From positions 32,001 through 96,000 of IMG/VR virus record IMGVR_UViG_3300032046_005540: a DNA stretch of 64,000 nucleotides; one strand, given 5' to 3'. Both the position numbers and the translations under genes were made by a program. Below, piece after piece: positions 12,767 through 43,860 of the stretch (the first letter of the stretch is position 1; every line of letters begins with the position of its first letter). The DNA is from a virus. The notes below the pieces were generated by a model, which did no database searches, had not been told where the DNA came from, and saw only the letters and a program-made list of their open reading frames with translations.

Positions 12767-13189
12767 TTAACTTTTTTCATCTTTTCTTACGATACGTCTT
12801 TCAAACTTTCCAAACCAATATAAAATAATAAAAGTTATAATACTTACAATTGTTGCTTCTACATAATAACCAAATCCTACCGCCATACCTACTATTCCAC
12901 ATATCCAAACACAAGCGGCAGTAGTAATCCCATGAACCGATCCTCTACTGTGTAAAATTACACCGGCCCCAATAAAACCTAACCCAGTTAATATATTACT
13001 TGCTATTTTTGTTACATCAGCACCATTACTACTAGCAAAACAAAAAGAAATATGAGCTGCAAGCATTGATCCTAAAACTATCAAAATATTAGTTCTTAAC
13101 CCAGCAGGCTTATGAAATAGTTCTCTTTCAAAACCAATCAAAGCCCCTAAAATAATTGCTATTAAAACTTTTAGAATAAAACTAAACAT
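12767..13189 (-). CDS. MgtC/SapB family membrane protein
   Basis: LGALIGFERE..KPAGLRT, GLGFIGAGVI, VHGITTAA..W. Confidence 0.92.
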   Translation of the reverse strand: MFSFILKVLIAIILGALIGFERELFHKPAGLRTNILIVLGSMLAAHISFCFASSNGADVTKIASNILTGLGFIGAGVILHSRGSVHGITTAACVWICGIVGMAVGFGYYVEATIVSIITFIILYWFGKFERRIVRKDEKS

Positions 13190-13191
13190 TA

Positions 13192-14112: not shown

Positions 14113-14959
14113 CTTCTTCTTCTCCTTCTACTTCTCTTTTTTCAAACAATTTTCGAGCGTCCTCTTTTTTCTTTTTTCTCATTTTTTCGCACTTTTCAGA
14201 AGTAAATTTTGGATCATATATAAATTGAAAACACTCTTTTTCAAGCCATCCATAAATACTATGTATTGGAATAAAATATCCCATATGAGTAATACTATCT
14301 CCCCATCCTATAACATTCATTCTGCTTGGAATTCCTATAAATAAATAGTCTTCTCCTTCTCCTTTTACTTCTTCCTCTTGCTTAATTAAAAATACTCCTC
14401 CCCCACTATTACCGTATATGATCAATCCGTTACTCATCCAATAAGGATGATTTTCCATTTCATCATCTTGAGATGTAATCTCTCCACGAGTGGGAATTGG
14501 AGAATGCCCAAGACTACAACCACACATATACACAGGATCAAAAATATGAATATTCTTTACATCATCTAAATATAATTTAGCAACATTTTTAACTTGTTCG
14601 TTTGATCTTAATTTTACTAAAGCAATATCTCTATCCCTATTATAAGTCATAATATCTGCTTCAATCGCAGTTCTTCCTACATTACGACTCATATTCTGAT
14701 ATTTATAAAATTCTACATTCACTGTTTTTCTTCTTTCTTTATCAATTCTTTTTGAAAGAAGAGGATCCCACTCTTTTTTAACAGATATTGCATCTTCAAT
14801 CACATGCCAGTTTGTTAAAATATATGTTTCATATTCTTCCGATCCCTTTTTTGTAGGCTTAGAATAAACAACAGTTCCACTTCCTCCCGCTTTATCAGTT
14901 TTAACGAGAGCAGAAACATATAAAATTTCTTCATGTTTCTTTTTTATATTATTGTTCAT
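14081..14959 (-). CDS. Trypsin-like (HtrA/S1-type) serine protease
   Basis: GSGTVV, LTNWHV, DIAL, GNSGGG; paralogue of 6499..7146. Confidence 0.88.
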   Translation of the reverse strand: MNNNIKKKHEEILYVSALVKTDKAGGSGTVVYSKPTKKGSEEYETYILTNWHVIEDAISVKKEWDPLLSKRIDKERRKTVNVEFYKYQNMSRNVGRTAIEADIMTYNRDRDIALVKLRSNEQVKNVAKLYLDDVKNIHIFDPVYMCGCSLGHSPIPTRGEITSQDDEMENHPYWMSNGLIIYGNSGGGVFLIKQEEEVKGEGEDYLFIGIPSRMNVIGWGDSITHMGYFIPIHSIYGWLEKECFQFIYDPKFTSEKCEKMRKKKKEDARKLFEKREVEGEEEDDKDEDTENE

Positions 14960-25300: not shown

Positions 25301-26186
25301 TGTCAAGTTGAGAAGTTTTACGCATACTTAAACTTCCAAATATTCCTGGTCCTTGAGGATGTGGTCCTGGAGAAGACTCATACTCCATAGGATTTGAATA
25401 ATTAGGATCTATATTTATTATATTTCCTTGTTCATCTGGGTAATTATAAAAAGGAAGACGTTGTCTTGGTTTTTTAGGACCTTTAGGCCATTCATCTGAT
25501 TTTCCAGGTTCATAAAAATTTTCTTGCATAGTTTCAGGTTCGGCTGTTTTACGAAAGTTTAAATTACTGCTAATTTTTAAATTACTTAATTCATCAAAAA
25601 AAGGATCATATCCAGGTTCTACTCCTTGTATTAAAATTTCTCCATATTTTCCATGACCATGCATAGTATTTATTACTTGATCTATTGCTATCATTTTTTC
25701 TTCAGGAGTTTTTGCTTGTTGTAATATATTAATAAAATTAGTAAAATCTTTAGTATAGGTTTTCATATACTGTGGAGGAGACATTCCTTGGAAAGTTTGT
25801 TCAAAAAATTGTTTATATTTTTCTAAAGTATCTAAAAATTTTGAAATAATCTCATCTTCTAATTCTTCATCATAAATACCTTTTGCTTCTTGAATATATA
25901 ATCTTTTTATTTCTTCTTTTGTAACTTGAGGAAGAGGAAAAGGATATTTCTGTTCAGATTTTTTCCTTAAACTCAAAGAAGCTATTTTTGGAATATAATT
26001 CAAAATAGATTCTTTCATTTCTTCTGGGGAAACAAAAAAAGTCCCTTTTAAATTATCCAAAATATGTTTTTTATAGAAATCATGGTGTGGATGATTTGTA
26101 GGCACTCCCTGTTCATTTAAAATTTCAGAAACGGAATTAGAGTCAGCAAAAAAATATCGAGGTTCACTTTCCAATCTTTTAATCAT
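16395..26186 (-). CDS. Giant 3263-aa multi-module (polyvalent) protein; candidate polyprotein
   Basis: Uninterrupted ORF; about 22 L[SN][ML]RKx[AS]-type linkers; NTase, ART-like, LRV and SH3 modules plus two repeated module families. Confidence 0.9.
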   Translation of the reverse strand: MIKRLESEPRYFFADSNSVSEILNEQGVPTNHPHHDFYKKHILDNLKGTFFVSPEEMKESILNYIPKIASLSLRKKSEQKYPFPLPQVTKEEIKRLYIQEAKGIYDEELEDEIISKFLDTLEKYKQFFEQTFQGMSPPQYMKTYTKDFTNFINILQQAKTPEEKMIAIDQVINTMHGHGKYGEILIQGVEPGYDPFFDELSNLKISSNLNFRKTAEPETMQENFYEPGKSDEWPKGPKKPRQRLPFYNYPDEQGNIINIDPNYSNPMEYESSPGPHPQGPGIFGSLSMRKTSQLDKQLFYDFYGVSLLSDQYLEQNPYASQYKDMIVQQVKEEYAPLITKSIYKALVYACRGVSVCLLDWNKWKKEFNIKNLGELKNLPLEQVSRIWNEGKWNKWMKRKVLPWGHITESLIQLINTSDTNQLITIIDHINDIQHNTGLLLEDFPETKKWIAEVLEIKAGTTLEQLLPYLSSDIQKFVIEDLQLKGQEVVEAPEKYLTGLEKSRLASNPRTPPETLVELAKDEDPGIRWEVAKNKNTLFETLTELVKDKEDFVRDEAKKRLKELKEFASKLNMRKKAQSVEYILEKLNKFKITNLGDIRLFIYNIASNVDVSEHLVNGLILDNMRRFPSSFIEQWKVYVTDEYGLGTFTEKLASEKIGEALGEWYRSFYKEPVENLVKDLKLEEIGVPWVKVPFSALLQKYTEDEIWDIASGKKTDVTVEEVEQAKEVISRGIVANKLSMRKETTKRNGRALWAIYEGQVVVNWNDREDHAGWFQDLGWPMSGVYFDRITRGRLENNNQVFWYKNTGTIEEYNNNLDALVVALELGPNVEFYVDYLNPKRIGHKKVIIEQEELLQPDLFSPSPEFIENLRFKKEKSKEEQEGKYKAFQKPFELIYGKSLKETIRKNIEEQFIIPQQLKLRFEKSAQFESQTTKQQLKRLYKQEAKGIYDEELMDQIIVDFINTIEGLIKFDEKDLKLSKGAEDEQIIHNIINDEKKMLQILQQATTPQEKMIAIDRVINTAHEFGVYGEYLITDIKSNDLFFEELSNLKVSSLNLKRIAQTEFKPGDEVEFDTTRYFGATRKSPGGVLKGKGIIKGKAEEGLYNIEIKEVTNVADDLVNVFKPGFTAPFAEDELKIKKPEKEIKKEIPVEKLEEKIEEPKKELIKVEEPKEVLKEIPTPVEEPKFTIEEEELEEKIPTEEEPEIAFAPTPTILGEPKEKIEEKEEKPFWQQLVNEVWKEYTKPRTLKKPFGSKTLVMRKEAVITPSELKTVYELELRYRELEQKYNEGTLTEAEFNQFQQTERKLDNLTDRIIRDLMFFFEDYFEWYEGIDPENIRKEEGELQVIEEMKQRWEELNNAFDINSKMIVIDNTINMMHVDFPIIWHLKMDYDEYLDRTSEEGLTLEKSKKVDEVWSNLIDFLQEQGKLKLAPKLTQKQKVVEKLSMRKQSQQNLTPEEEIFIKDFVKQFEHLHNAEEIYENLFNEKPFILDLTKHLEEDLKVFSDRSVFIALAILDQLKEDFGMLTSLKFGGKPKKYKGPIISILEDIAQDVWKALDLTEAKNIVLNRVENSQIAEEDKQTIINNVNRINNLLDLQKYIANSILAYEGMGTKLSMKKKATLDSEVINRTLNHFKENLELPKIYENIYNYVLNHYPELSTWEIERFSEIILGILESKEPNALVLGMRKKANADGLWAIYNGEIYKTTKEYKHHETWFEEIGLPTGGTAFDSAPRGIWYGNNWLIWYKDTGTFEEFSDNLPKLLSVLKLKPDTEISVRDPYFEELIPFEKVSLNLRKKAGIESHEYKYKEIHNKIPTYTFIGFQEFGDEKIIMVNCDICQSTLLLSLEEAKTHEYQIEGLPHGWEKEIKLSSLQLRKTAQNDEEDFPTPLTTKQELFRLYRQEAKGIYDEELMDEIISKFIQNLLELANWEEKHPLDSLTSIDWSQVTRGLISVLEKAKTPQEKMVAIDTVIHTSHMYDVYAQHLISGYFEYGPAKKDVWGPISEGSTFLDELSNLKISSSLNLRKKAETFIYDEPISNESSWAIYKGNVYITYSPGKRHPNWFEEIGLPSAGEVFDNIVRGYFYDYAFGSKDFKPEEKRIVWYGMGDYNEFYDHLEELKNALNFPPDAMVQMLDYTQGITTLAMKKEKETSNLITKTFNYLRKLFSVPNPILKSLDYPHSWPRKKKKEKIAQDISDSNKLSIQELKRFYKLERKGLLTDEFVDNVITKLIYGMEQEKIRIWNDPDIPEDLPKMYREGYEDDMNDFIHEMEIVLTKSLPEKIIAIDQIIHQAHLTYSFGWFQGDFDEIYNTIESIGEKEPIESLNLRMKKPASTVSEPTPNEPLQGQQGEHPEGEVYFQGKDKWLERQPDQGFDIKFPGKVKINRDPWLWGDNPTSEQTMTASLSLRKKAFINIGNIRKLYKQQLKTPGVYDHDLLVEIQYDFIENLQKLLEHMKKEYEGIEEDKDVEESIIIVEDDIRELEFAVTDENIMISIDNIISFIHDHFITGEPHIVMNMVNPNLEEEAEKLFETIFSQTEYLFNKKASILDYPQKHLDPEMWDLSGDLPKLKKDVKTLIIKRFIDYLREVGINNPELWCKGFYYTGSTATYRYLKTSDIDIHVEVDWDIYKENNLNKAKDDNEEMQKELLKVFWNTLNKEKLPGTSHPLTYYILSAKESVLTQGEEAYDILNDKWIVSPQKMPENLDVSDKIKLLQDKAENIMKKLDEELGKTKRDLIDYNILKELVSSYEGDKEDIQKLVEKKLEDIEQGLKQLQKENEQIHEERNKAFYDGQEPIEKGLSKNWTPGNILFKLIERYRYLDILRKIKHIIKDDQVTEEETKELEDVLIPKLSMRKTSQKLFSHETSKRNLESILQKGLDPSFVTEPGPFFKNIPGYPHFIMFTLYEPRELYRSDGGKGSPDSIYVIVSSATIQNFAELLNQYAPDTIMWYGEGLAEAQGIDNPTKEQLLDLGNKYMEWQGMTDWYISTEVISPENIKYILNNDEDVIWEPKLAMRKISFLTDNVSEIPENWVSQDKTDNKKLRRTNPPRHDKNDSIVEHNLDPHIDLASLSLRKKAFFENEGGLWAVYEGKVYITPPAKSVDWDSHVQWFETINLPSAGKKFDDIERGYYGKNFIGWLKDSGKLGNFVYYVPELITTLDLDPTITELEAYTPEDEHFPLGKVQEIMGSTTKLSFEGQPTTKNYNSPSLLLREDQGPGYPSEPAQAEIEGTVEDDPWGESNRLKKYKPTKELIFPDFSIPYGAEGGEIKQI

Positions 26187-27128: not shown

Positions 27129-27353
27129 TTAGAATCTAGGTATAAAAACAACATCTAAAAGTTCCACATCACTCATCATTGCAAGAAAAAAAGATCTAGT
27201 TCCATCCTTGCTAATGTCAAAAGCAAAAAAGAGACCTCGTTCTACGGAATAAGGTTCCACAGTCCTCAAACTAGTATCTCCTTTTTGAGTAGTATACATA
27301 AATCTAATCAAACGATGGCTTTCAATTCCAGTATAAATATCTTCAAGAGCCAT
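27129..27353 (-). CDS. Stand-alone WYL domain protein
   Basis: [22 protein letters not shown]; start placed at MALED after GGAG. Confidence 0.75.
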
Positions 27354-28248
27354 TTGCAAACTCCTCCAATTTATAAATAAGAACATCTCTCAAAAATTCA
27401 TCATAAAAATCAAAGTACCAAATACAAAAACATTCAACTCCAACACTTTTATATTCATTTATTATTCTTTCGTGGTGATCCCACCAAAGTTCTTTCGTAA
27501 TAATAGGATCATGAAAATATCCTCCTAAAACCTCAACAACTTTTTTAGTTTTCTTAAAAGGTTCAACAATAAAATCTGGATTTCTATTTTTATATTTACC
27601 ATTTTTAATAGGAATCCAAAATTTTCCGTTACCTACGTATTTTACATTCTTAGGAACTACCTTCATTACTTCTTGTTCAAGTTTACTAGGACCTATACTA
27701 GCTTTTTCTTTACCTTTTTTCATTTTTCTTAACTCTTCTTCAGAGGGTTTTCTACCTCTTAAAGCTTTACTAATTTTCTCTTTTGTATTATCAAAACAAG
27801 GATGTCCTTTTAAAGCATTACTTATTTTTCTTTTATGTTCTTCAGAAAGAGGCCCTCTTTTTTTACCTTTATTTGATTTACTTATTTTCTGTTTTGTTTC
27901 TTCAGAACGGTATGTTCCATAAAGAGGATTTTTTTCTCCTTTTTTTGATTCCCCTATTTTTCTTTTTGTTTCTTCAGAACGAGGTATTCCTTTTTTAGAT
28001 TCACTAATTCTTTTAACACCTTCACTAATTTCTTTTGTTAAATTTTTATTCCAAGCTTTTCTCCCTTTAAGAGACTCGCTAATAGTTCTTAACTTATATC
28101 CATTTCTTTTAATAATATTTCTAATAGTCACATCACTACAATTCCATTTTTTAGCTAAAACTATACTATTTAATTTCTCTTCAGAAAAATATTCCTTACA
28201 AATTTGTAATTCCTGCTCTTTTGTAAATATTTCCAAAGTTATCACCAA
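27343..28248 (-). mobile_element. Free-standing homing-type endonuclease (HTH + NUMOD3 repeats + PD-(D/E)xK)
   Basis: [18 protein letters not shown] repeats; NPDFI..VVEV.G.YFH. Confidence 0.8.
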
Positions 28249-31200
28249 TTTCTCCGATCAAAAGACCTCTTTCCTCCAACTCTGTCCTTCAGATTTTTAC
28301 CCTTTTTCATATTCCAAAGAGATCCTCCTTTTGTTGGAGGGTGACTTGTTCCTAAAGATATAGGCATTCCCCCTAGACTTTTATGTAATTCTCGAATTAC
28401 TTTACTACTCATATCCTTCCTTAAATTTAGTCTATGTATCAAATTAGCTGACACTACACAAAAATCATCAGAAGTAACTGGGCCACTTGTTGGTGCAGCG
28501 TAATAGACAGTTCCGCCACTTATTATTTTTTGTAAATATTTCAACTCAAGCTTTAATTTTCCAGGCCAATTTTCTAAAGGGCTTTCATCTATCCCATAAC
28601 AAAAAACATTGTTTTGATTCAACTGCTCTAAAAAGGTTCCGAACATCTCACTTTTGTAACTATTAGTAAAGGTTGTTTCAAATGCAGGTAATTTCATTTT
28701 TCTTAATTTATTAACACTATCTATACTGGACCATTGATCATAACAAATTTCTATAACCTGCTTTCCCATCACACTTAAATTTGCAATCAATTTCAATAAA
28801 AATTCCATCACTACATCTGGATCAATCCTTTCCATAACAATTTTACCATCTTCCAACAATTTTACTGTAGGTTCAAATCCTTTTAAACCATCAATCCAAT
28901 ATCTTTCTTGAGGCCTATCTTCTCTATGACCCCAAGCAATAGCATAAGTGTCAGATTTGCTTGCGGGGTCTACTGTTATAATATACAACTGACCCGGGCG
29001 GCCTTTTAACAAAATTGGAGCAGTTGGAATAACCATATTATCTATTTTTTCTGGATTCAAAAATGTTGAAGAAGGTTCTCCAAAATGTGCTCCATATTCC
29101 ATTGCTGCAGAAACTGGGTCTTTTCTAAAATCATCATCAAAACTTTTTCTTTCATATTTAGGATTTGCTTCCCAAGTTGCAAGTTGTAACATTAAATATT
29201 TTTGATTTTTATAAACTTCTTCAGTTTTAGTTTGTTCTTTTCCTCCTGCAGAACAATACAAAGAATAAAACTCTCCAGCTTTTTCAGATGGAGAACTAAT
29301 TGCTATAATTAAACCATCATCTCCAAAATCTTTAACCGAAGGAGTTAAAGCAACCCACATTGCGTGGTCTGTTTGAGGTGCATCTATAAATTCTAAAGTT
29401 CTTTTTCTATAACTTGATCTGGAAAAATGTGCCATTTCATCAAAGGACAAACAATTATGACTTATAAAACCATTTGAAGTAAAATTATGAGTTTTCGGAA
29501 CAGTTACATCATACATTAACTGGCGAGATGAATTTTCTTTTTTAACTATTTTATCCCAAATACCTTTTTCTACAGTAATAACAAACCTTTTTGGTTTTGA
29601 ATGTTTTCTTTTTTGTAATTTTTTTACAAGAAAATCTAATCGTAAAGTATTATATGTATGCAATGTTCCAATTTCTTTAGCATATAACAATATATCATTA
29701 CTATGTACAGAAATTGCATAAATAACATTAGACCTTTTTATAGTTCTTTTCGAAGAAATAATTCCAAAATTTAATAAAAGTATTTGTAACTGATGAGCGA
29801 GTTTTTCTGAAACAGTGTGCATAGAAAGACATCCCCCACTATTTTTATCTCCAGGTTCAACACACCCATCACCATCAAAATATGCTTTTAAAAACTCTTT
29901 CACTATTTCCTTTGGAGACTGTAAAATACACCATGGAATTTCCTTTTTATAACTATTCACATAATCTATTCCAATAAATTCCAAAAATTTTCTTACTTTT
30001 TTACTACAAATAATAATACTAAAACATTTTTTAGTTGCTTTAAATTTAGAAATAGATGTTGACTTTTCATAAATATATTTAACATCAGGAAAACATTTTT
30101 TTATACAATATTTTATATCATTTAAAATTTCTTTATTAGTATTAGAAATGCTAATTTGTGTTTTCTCTGTTACATTTCCTTCTGCAACTAAATAACCTAA
30201 TAATCTAGCAAGTTCCTTTGACATCTTTTTAGGAACTTTTACATCTTTATATCTATTACATTTTCTCCAAAAATTAAAGGTATATAAAGGTGTTTTTGCA
30301 TATCTTTCTTTGTACTGATGTAAAGTTATTTTATGAGTATGTAAATGATCTTCATTTATAAGTTTAAAAAATTTTCCACAAATTTCACATTTTATTTCTT
30401 TTTCTTTATTACCTTTATATTCGTCCCAATAATTATAATTAAATTCAAAATTCTTCAAATTTCCAAAATAATTTTGTCCCTTTTGAATATAAACCCAATC
30501 ACCTTCTTTTAAACTATTTAATTCTTTATATTCAATATTATTTTCCGAAGACATTGTTAATATTTTATGATCTCTCGTTCCAACTAAATCAAATCCAAAT
30601 TTTGTAGTTATTTTTATGCTTTCTTTTTCACCAGAACACATTACATGAGATGTTATAGCCTTCCCAGTATTACCATACAATTGTATTTTTTTATTTAAAA
30701 CAGTTTCCTCATTACACTGAACAACATCTCTTATAGGAATTATTCCCTTCTCAGTAAATATCAAAGTATCTCCAGAAACACATTGAATTGCTTTTCCTCT
30801 TTTAGTTGCTGCAGATGTAGTAACGGATTCAATACAAATTGAACCCCGTAAAAGGTTCTTTTTCATTGAACCTTTTGGTTTCCCTTCATTAAACTTTTTT
30901 ATTTGAGAATTTAAAAACAAATCATAAGGAGAAAACACCCTCAATTCAGTTTCATTATCTTTTTCAAAGTCTATATACTTTTGAAAAAATTCAAGTTTTT
31001 TAATATTATCTTTTATAAGATTAAAGGTTTCTTTTGCTTGTTCTCCATCCGAAGCACAATTAAGAATATGAATTGGATGTCTTTCTCTTATATTATAATA
31101 TTTTTGAGGATTACCTTTACAAACAAGTTTATATGCTTCATATGAAGCAATCCAAGAAACTACAGAACTTTTTGATCCTCTCCTACCTATAACTAAAATT

Positions 31201-31478
31201 AAAACTTCAATTACTTGTTTTGCATTTCTATGTTCTAAATCTAAATCAATATTCCATTCAGTTTTTAGAATATCAATTATTTTCTGTTCTTCTTCAGTTA
31301 TAGGATACTTTTCCCACAATCCATATAACAACTTTAATACTAAACTTTGAAAAGGGAAAGGTCTTTCACCTAACCATTTATGAGAAGTAATAAAAGTTAA
31401 AGCATCTACTGGTTCAATCGGTGCGGTTAGTAAAACTCTTTCTTCGTATTTTTTATCTACTAAATCTTTGAAGGTCAT
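28242..31478 (-). CDS. terL: Terminase large subunit with LAGLIDADG intein
   Basis: PFPFQ, Walker A-like GRRGSKS, Walker B LSFDE, ISSP coupling motif, nuclease VDPA...SDD. Confidence 0.88.
29454..30782 (-). mobile_element. Intein (443 aa) with LAGLIDADG endonuclease and internal Zn-finger insert
   Basis: N-terminal CVSGDTL; C-terminal YDVTV..HNF..NGFISHN followed by C(+1); LLGYLVAEG and [10 protein letters not shown]; CEICG..H..H insert. Confidence 0.93.
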
Positions 31479-32948: not shown

Positions 32949-33776
32949 TTACCTCACAATCTTACTACAAATTATACTTTTTACTTTTTCTGTATTATTT
33001 AAAATATCACTTTCCCAAAATCTTAAAAGAATGAAGTTGTTTTCTTTTACTAATTTTTCATTTTTAATATCTTTTTGATATTGTTTTAATTGTTTTTCAC
33101 TTAACTTTATAAACTTTTTTGTATTTCCATGATAATAATCACCATCTACTTCAATTAAAAAATTTGTATTTAAAATATGAAAGTCAAAAAGATGATTTCC
33201 TAATCTAAACTGATGTTCAAAAGGAATGTTTAATTCATTTAGAATTTCTTTCATTTTAAGTTCAGGTTTAGTATCTTTAAAAGGTCCAGGATTATTTTGA
33301 ATCCGAAGTAAAACTCTTTCTCTATCTTTTCTTTTGAATTCTTCAGAATGATGGTGATTATAAAAAGGATTTTTATCCCCTTTTCTAAGGTCACTCAATT
33401 TTTTCCTTTCTTTTGGATCTTTCCAACGTTGTATTACTTTTTCTCGAATTTTTTCTCGAACCTCTGGTCTTTTAGCTGGGTTATTTTCACCCTTAAATTT
33501 TTCTCTTAATTTTGCAAGAATAGTTGGATTTTTAAGGGCTTCTTTTATTTTCTTCCTTACTTCAGGTCTTTTTGCAGGATTATTTTCTCCTATAATTCCT
33601 TTACATGCCTTACTATGAGTTCTTAAAGAAAAACCTCTCCTTATAATAGCATTTCTAATTGCTGTATCACTACAATTCCATTTCCTTGCTAATACTAAAG
33701 TGCTTGGCTCTTCTTTAGAAAAATATTCATCACAAATTTGTTGTTCTTTTTCGTTTGTAAATAATTTATTAATCAT
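32949..33776 (-). mobile_element. Free-standing endonuclease (HTH + NUMOD3 + Vsr/DUF559-like)
   Basis: GENNPAKRPEVR repeats; TKPE...DF..IEVDGDYYH..LRFWE. Confidence 0.85.
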
Positions 33777-33790
33777 TTTTATCCTAAATT

Positions 33791-36700
33791 TTATAAAGAA
33801 AGTTCTAATTGTTCTCCTTCTGCAAGAAGACTACTTATAGACTTAATGTAACTCCATAAATTTCTCCCTAGCTCTTTTATGGAATCAAACACATCTGCCT
33901 TTTTAATAGTTCCTTCTCTTTTTGGAAATACAGTTAAAAGTCTTTGTTTTACATCTTTATCTAACGACGCAGCTCCACGTTCAGCTTTTTCTAAATAAGC
34001 TCTAGCTTCTTCTCCAAATTTCTCTAAAAGTTTCTCAACTCTCCATTTATCATCAGGTTTAAATTTTTTAGTTTTCATAGATGTATCCAACCATACAAAA
34101 AACTCCCCTACGTCAACTAATTTTTTTTCTGACTCACTTAACAAAGTAGCCAATTTCTCAATCGCTTGGCTCATTTCTTCAGCTTCTTTAACTGATTTAT
34201 GTTCCTCTTGAACCTTTCTAATTTCTTCTTCTACTTTTTGTCGAGCAGAATTTACAATTGCTTTTATTTCACCTAATCTTTGTTCGTGATCCTTAATTTC
34301 GTGGAAAGTCTCTTGCATTTTTGGAGTTGCCACAACAGCCTCTTCTACTTCTAACTCTGGTTTGTGTGGTTTTGTTTTTAAGGTCTTATACTCTACTTTC
34401 GGTTTTTCTTCAGTTTCTTCTTCTTGAGCAAATCTCAACGATTTCTTTTTAGAATCATACTTTTCTAAATAATTTTCTGTATTTTCAACCGCAGGCAAAA
34501 CAACTTCTTCTAATTCTTCTGCATGTTCTGCTTCATCATCAGCCATATCTTTTAAAGCTTTTTCTGCTTTAGGAGAATCAACTTCTTTTGCCATTTGATC
34601 ATACTTCTCTTCGCCTTCTGTTTCGTCCTTAATATCTTCTTTAACATCTTTTTCAGTAAGAGCTGCTTTTCGAATTTTTTGAATTATTTCATTAACTGAT
34701 TTACCTTGAGATATTTTTCTTTTAGCAGTTTTTTCTAAATCAGCTAAAGAAAATACATTTAATCTTCCATCATCTAAAATAACATTATATCCAGTGCCTA
34801 CAGTTCCTGATCTAAATTCATAATTAGGAGTAATTTCAGAAACTATTCCAGATAACCCACCAAGAGTTCTTACTTGATCTCCTTCACTTATAATTTTTTC
34901 TGCTGTTTTCTTTGAAGACCTTTTTTCATATAATCTAACATTTTCATCGTAAAAAGCTCCCTCATGTCCATCATCAAATCTTACCATATATTTATTCTGA
35001 ATTCCAGTCCAATCTACATCAAAAATTTCTCCTATCTTACCATAATCAACATGATCTTCTTCTACTACTTTTACTATATCTCCTATACTATAAGCAGCTG
35101 CTGTTTTCTTTTTTGAAGCATGAACTACAGGATAATGTTGATTTTTAAGTTTCTTGTCAAGAATTTCTTCTAACTCTTTTCTAGTCATTCTTGAAACTTC
35201 TGACATTACTTTTGTTAAATCAAAATCTGGAGGAAACTGACCTGCTCTTGCATAATCATTTATTAAAGTTCTTAATCTTGAAATAGGAATTTGTTTTCCG
35301 GTTTCATCTGTTTCATGATATCCAGTAGGTTCTGCTGTTTTCTTTATTGAAGATTTCTTACCTTTCATATGTTTAAACATTTCTACTTGTTGTAATCTTT
35401 CTTCTGCTTTCTTTCTTGAAGGGTAACAACCCATACTTCTACCAGATTCTGCTATTACACAAAATTCATTTCCTCTTTCAACTATTTTTGCTTCTTTAAT
35501 TGAAGCTTCTTTTGTTTCTTCCTCTTCAAACTCTTCATCCTCATCTTCTTCAATTAATTCTATTTGATTACCATTTACATACCAACCTCTTCCTTGCTCA
35601 TCTCCAACCCAACCTCTTCTTCCATCCCACTGAGATAAAGTAAAAACTTCTCCTGGTTTATCTTCATAAGCAGGTTTTAATCGAACTTGATCTCCATTTT
35701 GAAACTCATAATCTATTCCATCAGCAGTCTTTACAGGCTTTACAGAAGTTCCACCTCTAAACATTTTTTGAATTGCTCTTTCTTCTTCTGGAAGAATTCC
35801 TTGATTTGATTTTTCATAAGGAACACTAAAATCAGCATCAACTTCAGTTTGTTTTGCAACACTATAATCAGGATCTGATTCAGTAAAAGGAAATAAAGTT
35901 TTTTCATCTCTTAAACTTCTTTTAATTAAATTTTTAACTTTTTCTGCAAGCGTTGTAGTAGGAATTGCAGGAACAGCACCTGGAGTAGTTACAACTCCTG
36001 GAGTAGCTTGAATATTTAGATCCATATTAGGAATTGGAGCAGTTTTAACTCCTGTTTCATCTGTTAATACAGAAGCATCTCCTATAGTAGAATCAATTGT
36101 ATATATTTTTCCTTGATATTCAATTTGCTGACCAGGAGTAGGAATACCAGCTGCTGTTTTCTTAGAAGCTAATGCTAATAAATCTAACCTTTCTAATTTA
36201 TCAATAGAATTTTGATAAGCATCAAAAGCTTCTTGACGATTCATTCCAAATTCTTGTTCTAAATTTTTTACCATTTCTTCTAAAGTATAACCTCTTCTTA
36301 CTCCTATTCTAACTACATTATCTACACTATTTAATTCTTCTGCTGTTTTTTTAGAAGCAACCACTTCTCTAAATCTTGTAAAATCTCTTTCCTTAAAATG
36401 AATTTCAGGAGCACTAATTTTAGGTTCTGTAGCAGTAAATAATTTACCTGATAAGAAATCTGCAACTGCTTCTTTTGTAAAAGGAATTTCCCTTCCGTCT
36501 AAAGTAGAAAAAGTTTCAGGCAATACAACTTTACCAGCAGGAGTAATTCCAGCAGTAGCTAAAACTCTAAATCTTAAATCAAGATTATCGACTGCTTCTA
36601 TAGAAAATTCTGCTTCCCGAATGTTTTGTGGTCCTCCTTCTTTTACGCTACTTCTTGTGATTCCTCGTTGAAATCGAAGCTGAGGATTAAAGAAACCAAA

Positions 36701-37159
36701 TTTTTGGCAATATTTACCTAACTCGTGACAAATTTTTTCTAAGAGGGCTCTGTCAACCCAACTTTGGGGCGTGTAATTTGGCGTCACCCCTTGGTTCGGA
36801 TACACAGCAATTAAATTGGCTGCCCTATTAATTTTTGAATTTTGTTTTGTAGAAATTTTAATCAGCCGATCCACAATAAGAACTTTTCCACACTTAGGGC
36901 AAGAAATATAAGAATCTCCCCCCCGAGCTGATTCTACAATTTGTTTTTGCAAAAGATCCGCACTAAAAGAACTATGGCACCCAGAACATACATAAGAATA
37001 TGGTACTTGTTTTACAGATGATTTTGCATATTTACTAATTAAATTTTTTGTCTTTTCTGACAAAGGGTCCTTCTTTGTAGCTTCCTTTTTTATTTTTCTC
37101 TTATCAATCCAATCAGGAAGCTTGTTTTTATTTCCACCTTGTTTTTTTGGGACTAACAT
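33791..37159 (-). CDS. About 1120-aa multi-module protein; candidate polyprotein
   Basis: Zn ribbon, several KOW/SH3 modules and a ferritin-like ExxH module separated by ASKKTA-type linkers; ATG at 37159 after AGGAGG. Confidence 0.85.
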   Translation of the reverse strand: MLVPKKQGGNKNKLPDWIDKRKIKKEATKKDPLSEKTKNLISKYAKSSVKQVPYSYVCSGCHSSFSADLLQKQIVESARGGDSYISCPKCGKVLIVDRLIKISTKQNSKINRAANLIAVYPNQGVTPNYTPQSWVDRALLEKICHELGKYCQKFGFFNPQLRFQRGITRSSVKEGGPQNIREAEFSIEAVDNLDLRFRVLATAGITPAGKVVLPETFSTLDGREIPFTKEAVADFLSGKLFTATEPKISAPEIHFKERDFTRFREVVASKKTAEELNSVDNVVRIGVRRGYTLEEMVKNLEQEFGMNRQEAFDAYQNSIDKLERLDLLALASKKTAAGIPTPGQQIEYQGKIYTIDSTIGDASVLTDETGVKTAPIPNMDLNIQATPGVVTTPGAVPAIPTTTLAEKVKNLIKRSLRDEKTLFPFTESDPDYSVAKQTEVDADFSVPYEKSNQGILPEEERAIQKMFRGGTSVKPVKTADGIDYEFQNGDQVRLKPAYEDKPGEVFTLSQWDGRRGWVGDEQGRGWYVNGNQIELIEEDEDEEFEEEETKEASIKEAKIVERGNEFCVIAESGRSMGCYPSRKKAEERLQQVEMFKHMKGKKSSIKKTAEPTGYHETDETGKQIPISRLRTLINDYARAGQFPPDFDLTKVMSEVSRMTRKELEEILDKKLKNQHYPVVHASKKKTAAAYSIGDIVKVVEEDHVDYGKIGEIFDVDWTGIQNKYMVRFDDGHEGAFYDENVRLYEKRSSKKTAEKIISEGDQVRTLGGLSGIVSEITPNYEFRSGTVGTGYNVILDDGRLNVFSLADLEKTAKRKISQGKSVNEIIQKIRKAALTEKDVKEDIKDETEGEEKYDQMAKEVDSPKAEKALKDMADDEAEHAEELEEVVLPAVENTENYLEKYDSKKKSLRFAQEEETEEKPKVEYKTLKTKPHKPELEVEEAVVATPKMQETFHEIKDHEQRLGEIKAIVNSARQKVEEEIRKVQEEHKSVKEAEEMSQAIEKLATLLSESEKKLVDVGEFFVWLDTSMKTKKFKPDDKWRVEKLLEKFGEEARAYLEKAERGAASLDKDVKQRLLTVFPKREGTIKKADVFDSIKELGRNLWSYIKSISSLLAEGEQLELSL

Positions 37160-37169
37160 TGGCAACCTC

Positions 37170-38207
37170 CTATATATTATTTAAATTATTTTCAATTTCT
37201 TTCAAATCTTTTATAACAATTAACTTTAAATCTTTATATCCATATTCATCTAACAACTTTCTTCTCTGTAAATAATATTGTTCATCAGTTAATTTAAAAT
37301 CAAAAGAATGAAATTCTACAACAATTTTATCATTTACTAAAAAATCAAATCGCCCTCTAAAATTATGATCAATTTTAAAACCTAATTTCTTTAATTCTAT
37401 ATAACAATCTCTTTCTTGTATTGAAGGAAAAAATTCGTTATCATAATAACAATGATTCCCATGACCATTTTTTAAAGATTGTTGAATAGCTTTTGGAGTA
37501 CTGTTTGCTTTACTAATTTTTTCTCTTATTTTAGGATCTTTCATTATTTTCTGTAATTGAATACTTTTCCTTTTTCTTGCTTCTTTAGTTTGTGCCACTT
37601 CAAACTTTGTTCTCAAGGAAAACCCACAACGTTTAATAGCATCTCGAATAACACAAGGACTACAATTCCATTTTTTACTCAAAGTAAAAGCACTTGGTTT
37701 ATCTTCAGAAAAATATTCATTACAAATTTGCTGTTCTTTTTCTTTTGTAAAAGTCTTCTTTGTATCACTCATTTTCTTTTTTGTTTCTTCAGAACGAGGA
37801 ATACCTATTTTTTTATCTCTTATTTTTTTCTTAGATGCATCAGAAAGATGAGTACCATACATAGGGCTATTCTCCCCTTGCAAAGAGACACTAATTTTTC
37901 TTTTATGTTCTTCAGATTTTGGTTTACCTTTTAATTTTTCACTTATTTTCTTATTTCTTTCCGGTGAAAAAATTTTAGCAACTCTTTCGTCGGTCTCTTT
38001 AGTAAGATTTTTATTCCAAGCTTTTTTACCTTTACAAGATTCACTATGAGTTCTTAAAGAAAAACCATTTCTTTTAATAACATTGCTAATTGTTAAATGA
38101 TTACAACTCCATTTCTTTGCTAAAATAATAGTAGTTGGTTTTTCTTTTGAAAAATACTCATCACAAATTACTTTTTCTTGAATATCTGTGAATCTTCTTT
38201 TCGTCAT
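37170..38207 (-). mobile_element. Free-standing endonuclease (two HTH modules + NUMOD3 + PD-(D/E)xK-like)
   Basis: Duplicated EYFS.KP..L.KKW.C module; QERDCY..GRFDF..IVVEFH. Confidence 0.78.
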
Positions 38208-38218
38208 ATATTTTCCTT

Positions 38219-41056
38219 TTAGAACACCACGGGCGTTGCGGGCTCTGATTTTTTCTCTGCACTACCTTCTCCAACTTCTTCTTCTTCTACTTCCTCTGTT
38301 TCAAGTTCCCCTTCAGTTCCTTCAGTTGTTGGAGCTTCTGCACCAATTGGTTCTTCTTCTTTTTCTATTTTTTCTCCTTCTTCACCCTCAAAACTTACGT
38401 GCACGTCCTTAGTTTTAGGATTTACAATTACATGAATTTCTTCTACTTCTTCTTCAGTTTCTGATTCTTCTTGCTCTTCAGGCTTCTCAGGAAGACGTGG
38501 GAACTTTGTTTCTTTAACGCTCCAGTTCATAGGAGTCAATTTATCCGATCCAGCACCGCCACCACCCCTCAATGCTTCCATTCCATCTGCTTTCTTCTTT
38601 ATACTTGTTTCCTTTCTTAATTCTTCAGGAAACAAAGAATTAAAAATTTGATGAAATTCTTCTTCGGTTACAATATAATTTTCACTATCAAGCCAATCTC
38701 TTAAACTTCGATCTATATCTTTAGAAGGAGTTGTTTCATCAATTCTATATGTTTCAAGGAAATCTTCTTTTATATGCCCAACTACTTTCTCTATAGGAAT
38801 TTCAACTGCTTCTTTTTTTATTGAAGCAATTGAAGATAATTTTCCTAAATGTTTTTCAACATAATTAATAAGATCCAATAATTTTCCAGAACGATATGTT
38901 TTTTCTCTTTCTGGAGACTTTTCTATTTTATCTGACTCTTCTTTATAATCAGATTGAAGACCATCTAATACTTCAAGAAGGTCGTCAAAATCATCCCAAT
39001 TTTCATGAATAAGTTTTAACCATTCTCTTGCAGGTTTAGAAGCTGTTTTCTTTTTCGAAGCTCTCCTTACTTGTTCTATATAACCACATCCATGACATTC
39101 CCACTGTAGTTCTCCTTCTGCTATATGACTTGCTCCTAAAGTCATTTCGGAACCACATTTCGGACACGTTTCAGTTTCAACTTTATAAGATTGTTTTGAA
39201 GCTTCTTTTTCAATTTGAATACCTTCATGCTGCAAAAAATTCAACACTAAAGCTTTATATTCAGGAGAATCATAAAGCCAATAACCACGAATACCTTTAA
39301 ATGCTTTTGCATAAGCATCTTTTGGTGAAAGACCAGACTGTACCAAAGATTTCACAGTATCTATAAATCTTTGGATTTCACTACTAAGAGGTAATTGTTT
39401 TGTTTGTTCTATTGCTTGGTTACACTGGTTTTCACCTTCACTTTGCAATTCTTGTTTTTTCACTATATCACTTGCCTGAAACTCAAAGGACTGCCAAATA
39501 TCAGAAGTCTCTTCTTCACCAGGTTCTTGAACATAAACTGCAAAATAACACATACCTCCATGCGTTATACTTACTTGAGTTAAAACCACTTTGTAACCAT
39601 TATCCAAAACCTTTTCTTTATGAACAAATTGACCTCTCTTTATCGATGCTTCTTTTTCAGTTTCTTCTTCAGGCTCTAAATCTACTTCTTCTAACTCTTC
39701 AGGCTCTTCTTTTGAAGGTTCTTTAGCAGGAGATGTTGGAGGACTTTGTAAAGATTTAAAATAATGCCTTAAATCTTTTGGATCATCCACCCACAAAGTT
39801 TGAACAACATTTTGTGCTTTTTTAATAGAAGCTGTTTCAGTCATCTGAAGTTTTTGGATCCTTCTTTCTACTAAATTAATCAAATCTTTAACTTCTTCCA
39901 TTTTATCTTGATAAAAACTTGGGTTAGCGTTATATTCAGATATATCAGTCTCCATTGATCTTAATCTACTCTGGAGTCTTTCCAAAAGATGATTAAGATC
40001 CTCTAATGAACCGGAACTATAGAAGTATTCATCTCTTTCACTTTCTAGAAAGGCAATCTTCGTTCTTTTCTCAGCAGCAACCTTATTTATTCTATTTTCA
40101 TTTGCAATCTTTTCTAATTGCCTTTTAGAATAAGAAGCACCACACTTACATTTAAACGTTCCTAATTTTTTCAACATTTGTAAAGACATTTTTGCATTAC
40201 ATATAGGACATAAAGAAACAGGCCTAATTATATTATCTTCAAACCAAGTTGAAGGTAGATCTTTAAAACTAACTTTAGAACGGTCTGGAACTGCAGCAAC
40301 TACTTCTCCTATTTTACCATTATATTTTTCATAAAGATTTCCATGAGGAACATCTATTTGAACAATAGTTCCAGGCGAATGGGAGGTTTTGGAGGAGGTT
40401 TTAGAAATTTTTAATCCATATTGATGCCCTGGAGGCGAAGATTTTCTTTCATATTCCTTAACTACTTCATTAAAAACTTTTTTCAACTTATCAAGATTAA
40501 GAGTTGAATACAAATCATTAACACTTTCAACATAAATATTTTTTTCTTCAACTTCTCGGTCATCAATAGAATTTTCCAAATCTTCTGCTTCATAAACTAC
40601 CACCCAAGAAGAAGGTTTCTCTTCAAAACCTTGTAAAGAAGATATAACAACATATCCATTTGGTAATTCTTTTCGATCAATAAAAACACCAAAAACCTCA
40701 GGGTCTTCAAATTCTTCTCCTGGAAGTTCTGCTGTTTTCTTAGAAGCCTTCACCTGCCTCACGATTCTATCATTATCTCCATCAGTATATACTACTATCC
40801 AAGCCTCATCCTCTCCGTTTGCATTTTTAATTGTTTCCTTCTTCCAAATCGATCCAGCGTCAGGCTCAATTGTTCTCCGAAAAATATCCCACGAAATTTT
40901 TTCAAAACCTTTTTCAGTAAAAGGCACTGCTCCACGTTTTCGTAAATCAGAAACTCTTTTCTGATATTTAATATCAGCAACAGCTTTCCTCATAAAATCA
41001 GGAATTTCATTCCCAAATAATCGACGAACTTTGTTTAAATAACTTTTGTTTACCAT
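38219..41056 (-). CDS. 945-aa multi-module protein; candidate polyprotein
   Basis: KOW, Zn ribbons and duplicated modules separated by ASKKTA/ASIKKxA linkers. Confidence 0.85.
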   Translation of the reverse strand: MVNKSYLNKVRRLFGNEIPDFMRKAVADIKYQKRVSDLRKRGAVPFTEKGFEKISWDIFRRTIEPDAGSIWKKETIKNANGEDEAWIVVYTDGDNDRIVRQVKASKKTAELPGEEFEDPEVFGVFIDRKELPNGYVVISSLQGFEEKPSSWVVVYEAEDLENSIDDREVEEKNIYVESVNDLYSTLNLDKLKKVFNEVVKEYERKSSPPGHQYGLKISKTSSKTSHSPGTIVQIDVPHGNLYEKYNGKIGEVVAAVPDRSKVSFKDLPSTWFEDNIIRPVSLCPICNAKMSLQMLKKLGTFKCKCGASYSKRQLEKIANENRINKVAAEKRTKIAFLESERDEYFYSSGSLEDLNHLLERLQSRLRSMETDISEYNANPSFYQDKMEEVKDLINLVERRIQKLQMTETASIKKAQNVVQTLWVDDPKDLRHYFKSLQSPPTSPAKEPSKEEPEELEEVDLEPEEETEKEASIKRGQFVHKEKVLDNGYKVVLTQVSITHGGMCYFAVYVQEPGEEETSDIWQSFEFQASDIVKKQELQSEGENQCNQAIEQTKQLPLSSEIQRFIDTVKSLVQSGLSPKDAYAKAFKGIRGYWLYDSPEYKALVLNFLQHEGIQIEKEASKQSYKVETETCPKCGSEMTLGASHIAEGELQWECHGCGYIEQVRRASKKKTASKPAREWLKLIHENWDDFDDLLEVLDGLQSDYKEESDKIEKSPEREKTYRSGKLLDLINYVEKHLGKLSSIASIKKEAVEIPIEKVVGHIKEDFLETYRIDETTPSKDIDRSLRDWLDSENYIVTEEEFHQIFNSLFPEELRKETSIKKKADGMEALRGGGGAGSDKLTPMNWSVKETKFPRLPEKPEEQEESETEEEVEEIHVIVNPKTKDVHVSFEGEEGEKIEKEEEPIGAEAPTTEGTEGELETEEVEEEEVGEGSAEKKSEPATPVVF

Positions 41057-41068
41057 ATTAATCTCTCC

Positions 41069-41977
41069 TTATAAAAAATTTATTAAAAACTTACTAAAAA
41101 TTATCCTTTTCACTTTTTCTGTATTATTCATAATATCGTTTTGCCAAAATCTTAATAAAACAAAATTATTAGTTTTTGCAAGTCTTGTATTTTGAGCATC
41201 TTTTAGTTTTTGTATTAATTGGTTTTCAGTTAAATCGTCAAATATTTCAGGATTACCATGATAGTAGTCTCCGTCAACTTCTATAAGAATATTGGTGTTA
41301 GAAATATGAAAATCGTAAAGATGATTTCCTAATCTAAATTGATGTTCAAAAGAAATAGTTAATTCATTAAGAATCTCTTTCATTTTAATCTCAGGTTTAG
41401 TATTTTTCCAAGGCCCAAGATTATATTGGTATCGTTGTAAAGCTTTTTCACTTATTTTTCTTTTTGTTTCTTCCGAATATGTGTTTCCATAATTAGGAGC
41501 TTCTTCACCAAACCTATGAACTCCGAACATTGGGTTATTTTCACCTTCATGGTTTTTTCTATATTCAGGATTTTTCCAACGTTCTTCAGCAGCTTTACTC
41601 ATTTTTTCTTTTGTTTCCTCAGAACGTTTTTGCCCGGTTAAAGAATCACTAATTTTTTGTTTTGTTTCTTCAGATTTTAGTTTACCTAAATTTGGACCTG
41701 TTTTTCCTAGCCAATAATAATGTTTACCTTTAGCAGAAATACTCATTTTTTCTTTAGTAGTATCTGAACGAACCTTTCCTGACCAATATCCAAGTTTCCC
41801 ATCAAGAGATTCTGCATGAGTTCTTAAAGAAAACCCATTTCTTTTTATAATATTACAAATAGTCATACTATCACAATTCCATTTTTTGCCTAAAAATACA
41901 ACACCTGGTTTCTTTTCTGAAAAATAATCGTTACAAATTTCAATTTCTTGTTCTTTTGTAAACTTTCTTTTACTCAT
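41069..41977 (-). mobile_element. Free-standing endonuclease (HTH + NUMOD3 + Vsr/DUF559-like)
   Basis: Nuclease domain very similar to 32949..33776; start moved to MSKRKFT, matching its paralogues. Confidence 0.85.
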
Positions 41978-42107
41978 TATTTTCACTCTCTGAGCATTTT
42001 TTACAAATTTTTTTCCCATTTTTACCACTGTAAAGAACATTTGTTTTCTTTTTACAAATTTCACAAATTAAAGGAACAGATATTCCTTTTGCTTTCTTTT
42101 TTAGCAT
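41970..42107 (-). CDS. 45-aa Zn-finger protein (not in ORF track) starting MLKKKA
   Basis: SD AGGAGGT; CEIC...CKKC. Confidence 0.65.
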   Translation of the reverse strand: MLKKKAKGISVPLICEICKKKTNVLYSGKNGKKICKKCSESENNE

Positions 42108-42196: not shown

Positions 42197-42460
42197 CTAT
42201 TCTTCTTTATCGGCAACAACCTCAAGGCCTAGGAGAACATCAGAAGAAATTTGCAAGTACAAACATAGTTTCTTAAAAGTAGATAATGAAGGAATCTTTT
42301 GAAGACTTTCATATTCTCTTAAAAGATTTGGATCTTTATTCAGTATTTTCGCCATTTGAGCTTTAGTATGGTAAGGTGATCTCATTTGCATTCGGCGTTC
42401 TTTTAATAGTTCATTATCAAAAATTTTCCAACCGTCAAATTTATCTACAATTTTTTCCAT
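42197..42460 (-). CDS. XRE/Cro HTH regulator
   Basis: LKERR..TKAQMAK....EYE....PS....KLC..L..S.D.LLG. Confidence 0.8.
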   Translation of the reverse strand: MEKIVDKFDGWKIFDNELLKERRMQMRSPYHTKAQMAKILNKDPNLLREYESLQKIPSLSTFKKLCLYLQISSDVLLGLEVVADKEE

Positions 42461-43860
42461 TATTCAATCACTCCAGAATCTTCTTTGTAAGTATGTTTAT
42501 CAGCAGTAGAAATCTCAGGTTCTAAACACTCGTCTCTATTTTCTTCTCTTTGTCTAAATCCAGGAGTACCTTTCTTTTCTAACTTACTGAATTGTTTCAA
42601 AGTTTCAAAGGCTAAATTAAAATGACTTTGTTTCAAAATTACTTTATCATTTTCACCTAAAGAATTATCCTCAATAGCAAAACTCGAAGCAGTTATAATC
42701 AATTCTCTTAACAAAGCTCCAGTAAAACCTTTAGTCAAAACACTTAATTCTTTCCAATCAATATCTTCAGTTTTTAAATCTTTGCAAAAAACTTTAAGCA
42801 TTTTGAAACGTTCCTTATCTTCGGGCAAAGGTATTTTTATTACTCTATCAAATCTTCCAGGACGCTCTTTAATTGCTTTATCAAGCATTTCAGGGTAGTT
42901 AGTAGTCATTATAATCAACACTCCATTGTTTTCAACAAGACCATCTGCTTTATTAAGAAACTCTCCTAAAACTATTGAATTGTTGCCATATTCCCTAGAA
43001 GTTCCATAAAAATCAACATCTTCTAAAAACAAAATAGTAGGGGCAAGTTCATCTGCTAATTCAAATAACATATCAATGTGTGAAGTACGATCACTTTGAA
43101 AAAATTTAGGAGTAACCCAAACAAAAGTCACTCCTTCTGTTGTTGAAACTAAAACTTTTCCTAAAAGAGTTTTTCCAACTCCAGGATCGCCACATAACAA
43201 AATTCCTCTTTTTGCAGGAAGACCATTTTTTCGATATATTTCAAAATTTGCTAAATATCTTTCAATATTTCTTTTAATTTCTTCTTCTATATTCTTTGAT
43301 AAAATTATATCATCCCAAGTATAAACTCTTTTTAATTTTAAAAACCTTCCAAAAGGAGTGATCTTAGCCCCTTTTAAAAAATTCAAATATTTAACTTTAT
43401 CTTCTAAATCAGAAATAATTTGAGAGGCTTCTTCCTTATTTTCATTAGAAGAATAAACATAAACATAACCTGCATTACAACTTCTTTCAAAATCAATATT
43501 AACTACAAATTTTTTATTATTTTTAGTCAAAAAATAATTACCAACAGTAACTACATTAGCAGTTTCATCTTCACTTATTTCAACTTGTATTCTTTCAACT
43601 TCCATATCATAACCATCATAATCATAATTAAGTAATTGACTAACTACAAAATTCTTTTCTTTTAACAACTCTGGAAGGGAATAACAAACAATAGGCATTT
43701 TAAATTGAGAATATGTTTGTTTTGTAGAAAAAAGATTATCTAATTTAATTTCCAAAAAATCAATTACAAATTTGTTATGAGATTTGTAACGATGAAACGC
43801 CTCTTTCATAACTTTCTCAAACTCTTCTAAAGAAGCGTCTGTAAACTTTTTATTTTCCAT
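42460..43860 (-). CDS. AAA+ ATPase
   Basis: GDPGVGKT, LFLEDVD, TTN, RPGRFDR. Confidence 0.9.
   Translation of the reverse strand: MENKKFTDASLEEFEKVMKEAFHRYKSHNKFVIDFLEIKLDNLFSTKQTYSQFKMPIVCYSLPELLKEKNFVVSQLLNYDYDGYDMEVERIQVEISEDETANVVTVGNYFLTKNNKKFVVNIDFERSCNAGYVYVYSSNENKEEASQIISDLEDKVKYLNFLKGAKITPFGRFLKLKRVYTWDDIILSKNIEEEIKRNIERYLANFEIYRKNGLPAKRGILLCGDPGVGKTLLGKVLVSTTEGVTFVWVTPKFFQSDRTSHIDMLFELADELAPTILFLEDVDFYGTSREYGNNSIVLGEFLNKADGLVENNGVLIIMTTNYPEMLDKAIKERPGRFDRVIKIPLPEDKERFKMLKVFCKDLKTEDIDWKELSVLTKGFTGALLRELIITASSFAIEDNSLGENDKVILKQSHFNLAFETLKQFSKLEKKGTPGFRQREENRDECLEPEISTADKHTYKEDSGVIE

Follow-up and report, generated by a model that had tools for sequence, protein, structure and literature searches.

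P0001 is a protein of 945 amino acids (aa) encoded, with its stop codon, by a single open reading frame (ORF) at 38219-41056 on the minus strand of the window, the 64,000-nucleotide (nt) stretch analysed here; the window comprises bases 32001-96000 of the virus record IMGVR_UViG_3300032046_005540, a single linear virus of 168,267 base pairs rated ~90% complete. Comparison with its 12 full-length homologues (496 to 1154 aa, all metagenomic) strongly supports the gene for P0001, termed the third polyprotein, as a mosaic cassette gene; the homologues differ by whole modules, and the breakpoints coincide with short basic peptide linkers. A sequence-only reading of the window had proposed that a linker plus its module is the unit of duplication and exchange; exchange is strongly supported by homology blocks that end at linkers, by modules that change slot and gene, and by a clean insertion. 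P0001 is further considered, with an about even chance of this being correct, to be a late, head-associated cargo polyprotein whose K-(K/T)-x-(A/S) linkers would be the cutting sites of a phage protease.

Four frame modules (N, Z, Q, and C) occur in the same order in all 13 proteins and leave three slots between them, which would receive independently folding cassettes of 40-140 aa. Among the 13 proteins slot I spans 25-243 aa, slot II 73-333 aa, and slot III 28-378 aa; P0017, the smallest member, carries essentially one cassette and P0001 carries six or seven. Module order and content differ between homologues, the content being clearly not fixed; two variable modules of P0001 have no homologue at all, and the others recur in one to four relatives only. 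DNA homology blocks shared with five related loci stop at aa 107-111, 218-223, 330-334, 409-412, 472, 665, and 811-822 of P0001 (a further apparent stop, at aa 746, merely reflects where a contig ends). Most of these seven distinct ends are no more than 3 aa away from a linker, and none is farther than 6 aa; the linkers with 3 aa on either side make up ~12% of the protein.

Cassettes also change place. A module in slot III of P0010 (aa 691-761) matches one in slot I of P0004 (aa 131-200) with 53.5% identity and an E-value of 7e-19. Exchange between genes is displayed by the ‘AKIVERGNEFCV...’ cassette of the second polyprotein (aa 551-604; 35354-35515, minus strand), which is also found in the third-polyprotein gene of seven relatives; from linker to linker it is 95.6% nt-identical to aa 441-494 of the third polyprotein of L006, and the L006 second-polyprotein gene does not have the cassette. 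The helical H module (aa 673-743 of P0001) occurs twice in P0015 (E 1e-31), a 1444-aa protease-scaffold protein, and is missing from the five more distant P0015 homologues examined. At the second of these sites P0015 features the module plus a second linker; because three relatives hold a bare linker at the same place, the insertion is clean and carried its own linker. The content of the first site differs among relatives, which have none, one, two, or two to three other cassettes there. The role of the linker as an in-frame joint, at which recombination inserts, deletes, and moves module-plus-linker units, is apparent from these comparisons; units are exchanged from slot to slot and between the two adjacent polyprotein genes, enter the protease-scaffold gene, and pass between co-infecting phages.

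The sequence-only reading had also held that the modules duplicated internally, on the basis of two segments with a shared helical pattern and two with a K[EV]L.NGY.V start. P0001 was cut at its linkers into ten modules and all 45 pairs were compared; internal repeats were sought by BLAST with 90-aa windows (whole-protein self-BLAST culls high-scoring segment pairs). The helical pair, aa 336-408 and 673-743, does contain the quoted pattern and has a Smith-Waterman z of 4.5-4.7, which is not reached in 300-1000 shuffles and is marginal given the 45 pairs tested. Alignment of the family profile to aa 336-408 by hhalign gives a probability of 42% and P 2.6e-4 over 50 in-register columns; a hidden Markov model (HMM) made from the clear relatives of aa 673-743 scores aa 336-408 at 2.9 bits (E 1.6 in a 580-protein set), which is not significant. 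The similarity appears to be beyond chance yet not established. Against the H modules of P0004, P0006, and P0007, aa 336-408 scores z 3.5-5.5, compared to -1.1 to 2.1 for four control helical modules, and its best partner is the module in the same slot (II) of P0006 (z 5.5); it is probably an old, diverged member of the H family rather than a recent internal copy. For the second pair (aa 110-216 and 476-535) the K-x-L-x-NGY-x-V start is shared, but similarity remains at chance level (z 1.1-1.3; HMM 4.7 bits, E 0.5; hhalign probability 1-6%).

An origin of both pairs by duplication within the P0001 gene would agree with the score and register of the helical pair, and with the position of both NGY modules directly after a linker. 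Such an origin is nevertheless improbable: module 673-743 is closer to the two P0015 copies (37-43% identity) than to aa 336-408 (about 30%), the latter has its nearest relative in slot II of P0006, and the NGY pair is not significant. The self-comparison also failed to bear out the claim, as window BLAST found no off-diagonal match at E<1e-3 in P0001 or its 12 homologues; the same search displays many internal repeats in the 3263-aa, 1185-aa, and 1444-aa (P0015) proteins. What stands of internal duplication is a plausible old paralogy of the helical pair and the start motif of the NGY pair; since module 673-743 is closer to P0015 than to aa 336-408, copying appears to have occurred between genes and genomes and not through recent duplication inside the P0001 gene.

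All nine linkers that had been listed from the sequence are present in P0001, with their last bases where they had been placed. From the N-terminus, and all on the minus strand, these are ASKKTA (aa 104-109, 40730-40747), of which V-K-A-S is invariant in 13/13 proteins; ISKTSSKTS (aa 217-225, 40382-40408), in which SSKTS is aa 221-225 and a DNA homology block has its left end at aa 218-223; EKRTKIA (aa 329-335, 40052-40072), in which TKIA is aa 332-335 and a block has its right end at aa 330-334; ASIKKA (aa 409-414, 39815-39832), with a block end at aa 409-412; ASIKRG (aa 470-475, 39632-39649), with a block end at aa 472; the degenerate form ASKQS (aa 619-623, 39188-39202); ASKKKTA (aa 666-672, 39041-39061), where a block begins at aa 665; ASIKKEA (aa 744-750, 38807-38827); and TSIKKKA (aa 817-823, 38588-38608), with a block end at aa 811-822. 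The strict pattern S[ILMV]?[KR][KR][KTE]{0,2}[AG] is found 6 times in P0001 compared to 0.25 expected, and none of 2000 composition-preserving shuffles reach 6; its density of 6.3 per 1000 aa is ~30-fold that of 157 other ORFs (0.2 per 1000 aa). Multiple linker matches occur only in P0001, the second polyprotein, the 3263-aa ORF, the portal-adjacent 1185-aa ORF, P0015, and a 518-aa ORF; the linker-bearing proteins are a handful, located in the late region of the genome.

Nearly all of the six frame junctions across the 13 proteins hold a linker. The consensus is (A/S)-S-(I)-K-(K/T)-x-(A/S), with Q, E, or D as the next residue, and in an alignment with a mean column identity of 32% the linker residues are found among the invariant columns. 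In orthologous linkers the amino acids are constant and the codons vary (GTG/GTA, AAG/AAA, TCT/TCA/TCC/TCG/AGT, GCA/GCT); within the genome, the Ala, Ser, and Lys codons of the linkers are at background usage. Because orthologous linkers differ synonymously, these codons are at background, and the residues are invariant, the constraint is mainly on the linker peptide, and common descent or copying at the DNA level has left a trace. Slippage of the ribosome or of transcription on the Lys-Lys codons (A AAA AAA, A AAA AAG), which would give nested truncated products, is extremely unlikely. Several linkers do contain in-frame X XXY YYZ heptamers, such as ATA AAA AAA GAA at aa 746-749, and TCA AAA AAG is present in a linker of the second polyprotein; linkers with slippery heptamers are located at window 38807-38827 and 39815-39832 and, in the second polyprotein, near 35100-35130. 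They are probably no more than Lys-Lys pairs of an AT-rich genome: at 30% guanine-cytosine (GC) content such a pair is by default spelled AAA AAA, many linkers are without such runs (AAG AAA ACA, AAA ACC TCC), and the conserved flanking Ser and Ala would have no role in slippage.

If P0001 is a processed cargo polyprotein, the linker would have a second function as the recognition site of a phage protease, the chain would be cut into about ten small proteins, and the cassettes, by analogy with packaged internal proteins and polyvalent proteins, would act early in the next host. The likeliest enzyme would be the predicted head maturation protease at the N-terminus of P0015. Residues 144-222 of P0015 match phrog_18299 ‘head maturation protease’ (E 1e-10), and the protein is homologous to gp19 of Bacillus phage G and to a gene of a Gordonia phage that bears the annotation capsid maturation protease; neither the P0015 protease domain nor the capsid protein had a match in sequence searches of Pfam and the PDB. 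A scaffold fused to a protease sits within the prohead and is degraded there; because of this, cassettes embedded in P0015 between the same linkers would be released in the prohead. In P0015 homologues down to ~50% identity, K-x-A motifs are conserved near the C-terminus and directly behind the protease domain, and the N-terminus of the capsid protein contains two K-x-A motifs that are kept in relatives 72-84% identical; this conservation indirectly favours cleavage at the linkers. The N-terminus of the capsid protein is 47 residues longer than that of phage G gp27, with similarity beginning at residue 48, and the additional residues may be a propeptide. The capsid protein gene (L003 5251-6240, minus strand) features an (AATCGTT)x3 repeat ahead of its ribosome-binding site.

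Processing could also take place in the cytoplasm through the trypsin-fold S1 protease encoded at window 14081-14959, or a paralogue; the polyprotein would then perhaps be unpackaged and its products ordinary late or intracellular proteins. The linkers are rich in Lys and Arg like trypsin-type sites, and this cytoplasmic Trypsin_2 protease is encoded directly downstream of the 3263-aa polyprotein. The preference of trypsin for Lys/Arg is given by an Asp at position -6 from the catalytic Ser, however, and in the putative register read from the sequence this position relative to the GNSGGG Ser is a Leu; furthermore, the H cassette and the linkers within P0015 tie the system to the prohead. Cytoplasmic processing is considered quite unlikely.

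Several observations weigh against cleavage and packaging of P0001. The phage is known from metagenomes alone, and both processes are deduced from its sequences; in a proteome rich in Lys, K-x-A makes a weak motif, and an N-terminal K-K-x-A is present in 9/172 ORFs, which is not striking. Two related IMG/VR contigs, which are fragments, carry the polyprotein without capsid and protease genes, no cassette was found as a stand-alone gene in a search of limited sensitivity, and the AlphaFold models are poor, the whole protein reaching a predicted local distance difference test (pLDDT) score of 46.5 and module Z one of 60.7. The codons of the linkers add to this: within the genome the Thr codon is ACA in 8/8 cases (p 0.001) and the Ala codons are position-specific, with GCT at the 5' and GCA at the 3' position. 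This bias hints at common descent or DNA-level copying, which could alone keep the linkers alike. It would thereby suit an uncleaved chain of beads on a string, in which the basic linkers are flexible tethers, perhaps DNA-binding in the head, and resemble each other through copying with their modules; that insertions bring their own linker also agrees with such a chain. A mere tether would not need a fixed sequence, however, and the linkers are invariant even between two frame modules that are never separated; the same motif also recurs at conserved points of P0015 and at the capsid N-terminus, and orthologous linkers vary at synonymous sites with the peptide constant. An uncleaved chain is judged unlikely.

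A wider form of the cargo polyprotein proposal can be offered only tentatively: the clade may run a cassette-array system, in which the linker is both recombination joint and head-protease site and cassettes are dropped into several carriers, packaged, and released. Any small gene with a linker would fit the carriers (two or three polyproteins, and even the protease-scaffold), and passengers of the capsid, freed as proteins, would constitute a rapidly reshuffled repertoire of injected effectors. Free-standing homing endonucleases that flank the carriers may drive the exchange, for which co-conversion around them could be responsible. A second linker dialect, S-L-(S/N)-(L/M)-R-K-(K/T)-A, is used in the 1185-aa, 3263-aa, and 518-aa proteins (genome 15322-18879, 48395-58186, and 150473-152029, respectively), which have their own shared cassette pool; the second and third polyproteins use the first dialect, A-S-I-K-K-T-A, and no cassette was found to be common to the two pools. 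The C-terminal end of the 1185-aa protein is itself a linker.

Module N (aa 1-103, 40748-41056; this and all following module coordinates are on the minus strand) is found in all 13 proteins with 52-80% identity; it is predicted, at low confidence, to have three helices plus a β-hairpin and has no family match. Slot I contains an ‘NG[YW]’ β-plus-helix cassette (aa 110-216, 40409-40729) with relatives only in P0005 and P0014 (Smith-Waterman z 12 against P0005; HMM E 1e-34). Module Z (aa 226-328, 40073-40381) is 94-98% identical in four relatives and is predicted to feature an SH3-like barrel, a CxxC...CxC zinc ribbon, and a helix; Foldseek against the PDB returned nothing at E<0.5 for this module, and best scores in the ESM Atlas for modules N and Z were 0.83 or less. 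The two-helix cassette of slot II (aa 336-408, 39833-40051), which is the probable diverged H member described above, is without a close homologue. Module Q (aa 415-469, 39650-39814) displays the sequence QNVVQTLW...PPTSPA followed by an acidic tail ending in EKE; it is found by BLAST in 9/11 homologues, and the motif is present at the Q junction in 12/13 proteins.

Slot III begins with a cassette (aa 476-618, 39203-39631) in which an NGY β part and a helical part follow each other without an intervening linker; P0004 aa 422-482 is a relative of the helical half (Smith-Waterman z 8.7; BLAST E 3e-5), and the match of the N-terminal half is not significant. The two halves are adjacent in P0004 and, judged by eye, the helical half appears alone in P0012 and P0014. 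The linkerless composite apparently arose through linker loss and module fusion. It is followed by a four-Cys zinc ribbon (aa 624-665, 39062-39187), which is 83% identical to P0008 aa 657-697 and has a weak Lar-like Pfam match below the cutoff, by the H module (aa 673-743, 38828-39040), which is also found in P0004, P0006, and P0007 (HMM E 1e-27 to 1e-35; BLAST E 1e-9 to P0015), and by a second helical cassette (aa 751-816, 38609-38806) with 42% identity to P0009 aa 559-600. Module C (aa 824-945, 38222-38587) is present in all homologues; it contains the motif DGMEALRGGGG and an acidic tail, and its C-terminus is a conserved P-V-x-F. A function of H as a widespread scaffold- or capsid-targeting domain was considered and rejected, as a profile search of 1.84 billion representatives returned the known relatives and two spurious repeat/coiled-coil proteins; because H is missing from most protease-scaffold homologues, it was likewise rejected as part of the scaffold frame and is considered a cassette.

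Pfam analysis of 12 members gave only sub-threshold zinc-ribbon or SH3-type matches and one DUF5661, and PHROGs gave no family; no homologue of P0001 was found in 50,697 phage records, phage G included. Where shorter or stand-alone versions of the modules were sought, the smallest was the minimal homologue of 496 aa, with none below it. The module catalogue was checked by hand and is non-exhaustive; regular-expression segmentation with single-linkage clustering chained unrelated modules through two-module segments and was used for individual checked pairs only.

The window has a GC content of 26-33% and nearly all of its genes are on the minus strand. The ORF of P0001 is a real gene with a strong Shine-Dalgarno sequence, AAGGAGAG, at 41062-41069, 6 nt ahead of the ATG at 41056; promoter and terminator scans gave counts equal to shuffled expectation. 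In the direction of transcription it is preceded by an AAA ATPase (42460-43860) and a NUMOD3/DUF559 homing endonuclease (41069-42064, minus strand), and followed by a second homing endonuclease (37170-38207, minus strand), the neighbouring second polyprotein-like ORF (33791-37165), a third endonuclease (32949-33776, minus strand), the large terminase with a LAGLIDADG intein (28242-31478, minus strand), and the 3263-aa ORF (window 16395-26186). L001, L002, L006, and L007 share the order AAA ATPase, third polyprotein, second polyprotein, small ORF, large terminase. The head genes are located downstream, beyond the window, and include P0015, a decoration-like ORF, and a capsid protein matching phrog_2522.

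The free-standing homing endonucleases form a family that also includes 27343-28248 (minus strand) and, in L003, 11164-12147 and 2784-3575; its members occupy the gaps among the polyprotein, terminase, and head genes. They feature NUMOD3 repeats and a nuclease end of DUF559/Vsr-like type; a helix-turn-helix-like unit, ‘FT..QE..IC..YF’, is shared at the N-terminus and is doubled in the endonuclease at 37170-38207. In L001 and L002 the two polyprotein genes are not separated by an endonuclease, and in L007 one follows the third polyprotein; intein and Hom_end domains are also present in three P0015 homologues, P0022, P0023, and P0031. Downstream of the 3263-aa ORF, at window 12767-14959 (minus strand), an MgtC-family membrane protein, a membrane-anchored S49 (SppA-like) peptidase, and the cytoplasmic Trypsin_2 protease with an acidic tail are encoded in a row, which is an unusual combination in a phage.

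Polyvalent proteins are multi-domain proteins of phages and conjugative elements, encoded near portal or terminase genes and proposed to be packaged, delivered, and proteolytically released, with domain content that varies greatly between relatives (Iyer, Burroughs, Anand, de Souza, Aravind 2017, PMC5512222). P0001 resembles these in having ten linker-bounded modules of different sequence families, within the range of 2-15 domains, and in the location of its gene among packaging genes, between the AAA ATPase and the large terminase. Unlike polyvalent proteins, which typically contain a zincin-like metallopeptidase, P0001 and its homologues have no embedded peptidase by Pfam or PHROGs, and cutting would have to occur in trans; the Pfam scan of 12 members found none of the catalogued domains (MuF, ART, DdrB-ParB, PBECR, and LPD families, among others). 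The modules of P0001 are also much smaller and unannotated, one conserved short peptide is found at the junctions, and the family keeps a fixed frame of four modules and three slots.

The head-protease motifs of T4 and phiKZ end in glutamate, which the basic K-(K/T)-x-A/S motif of P0001 does not resemble. Ejection proteins of phiKZ and SPN3US are processed by the prohead proteases gp175/gp245, as are IPI-III and Alt of T4 by gp21; the head protease in such phages recognizes a short motif common to capsid, scaffold, protease, and internal cargo, and some substrates are cut multiple times (PMC10052503). The present phage likewise encodes a predicted prohead maturation protease (P0015). Cleavage in T4, phiKZ, and SPN3US mostly trims an N-terminal propeptide, whereas P0001 would be diced at about nine sites into about ten products. 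Bacillus phage G (Donellivirus) is the closest cultured relative of the head genes: the major capsid protein is 40% identical over aa 48-316, with the decoration gene adjacent, and gp19 shares 29% identity with P0015 aa 23-299; in phage G the protease is a separate protein of 300 aa, while P0015 is a protease fused to a cassette-bearing scaffold. P0001 also resembles the polyproteins made by RNA viruses of eukaryotes in that one translation product would be divided at short conserved sites; it differs in having no embedded protease, in belonging to a tailed phage with double-stranded DNA, in being one of several accessory genes rather than the main coding strategy, and in its rapid module turnover.

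Proteins that phages pack into the head and inject are known, but how sets of such cargo diversify is poorly understood. The comparison of P0001 with its homologues provides a grammar for this process, in which frame modules are fixed, three slots are variable, a linker marks each joint, and cassettes move between slots, genes, and phages. If the linker is a protease site, the arrangement would amount to a naturally occurring, modular means of loading capsids with small proteins of any kind; dozens of unannotated modules of 40-140 aa would then be candidate host-takeover or anti-defence factors, and the enzyme would represent a new specificity class of head proteases. Even without cleavage, the gene clearly exemplifies evolution akin to exon shuffling in a phage.

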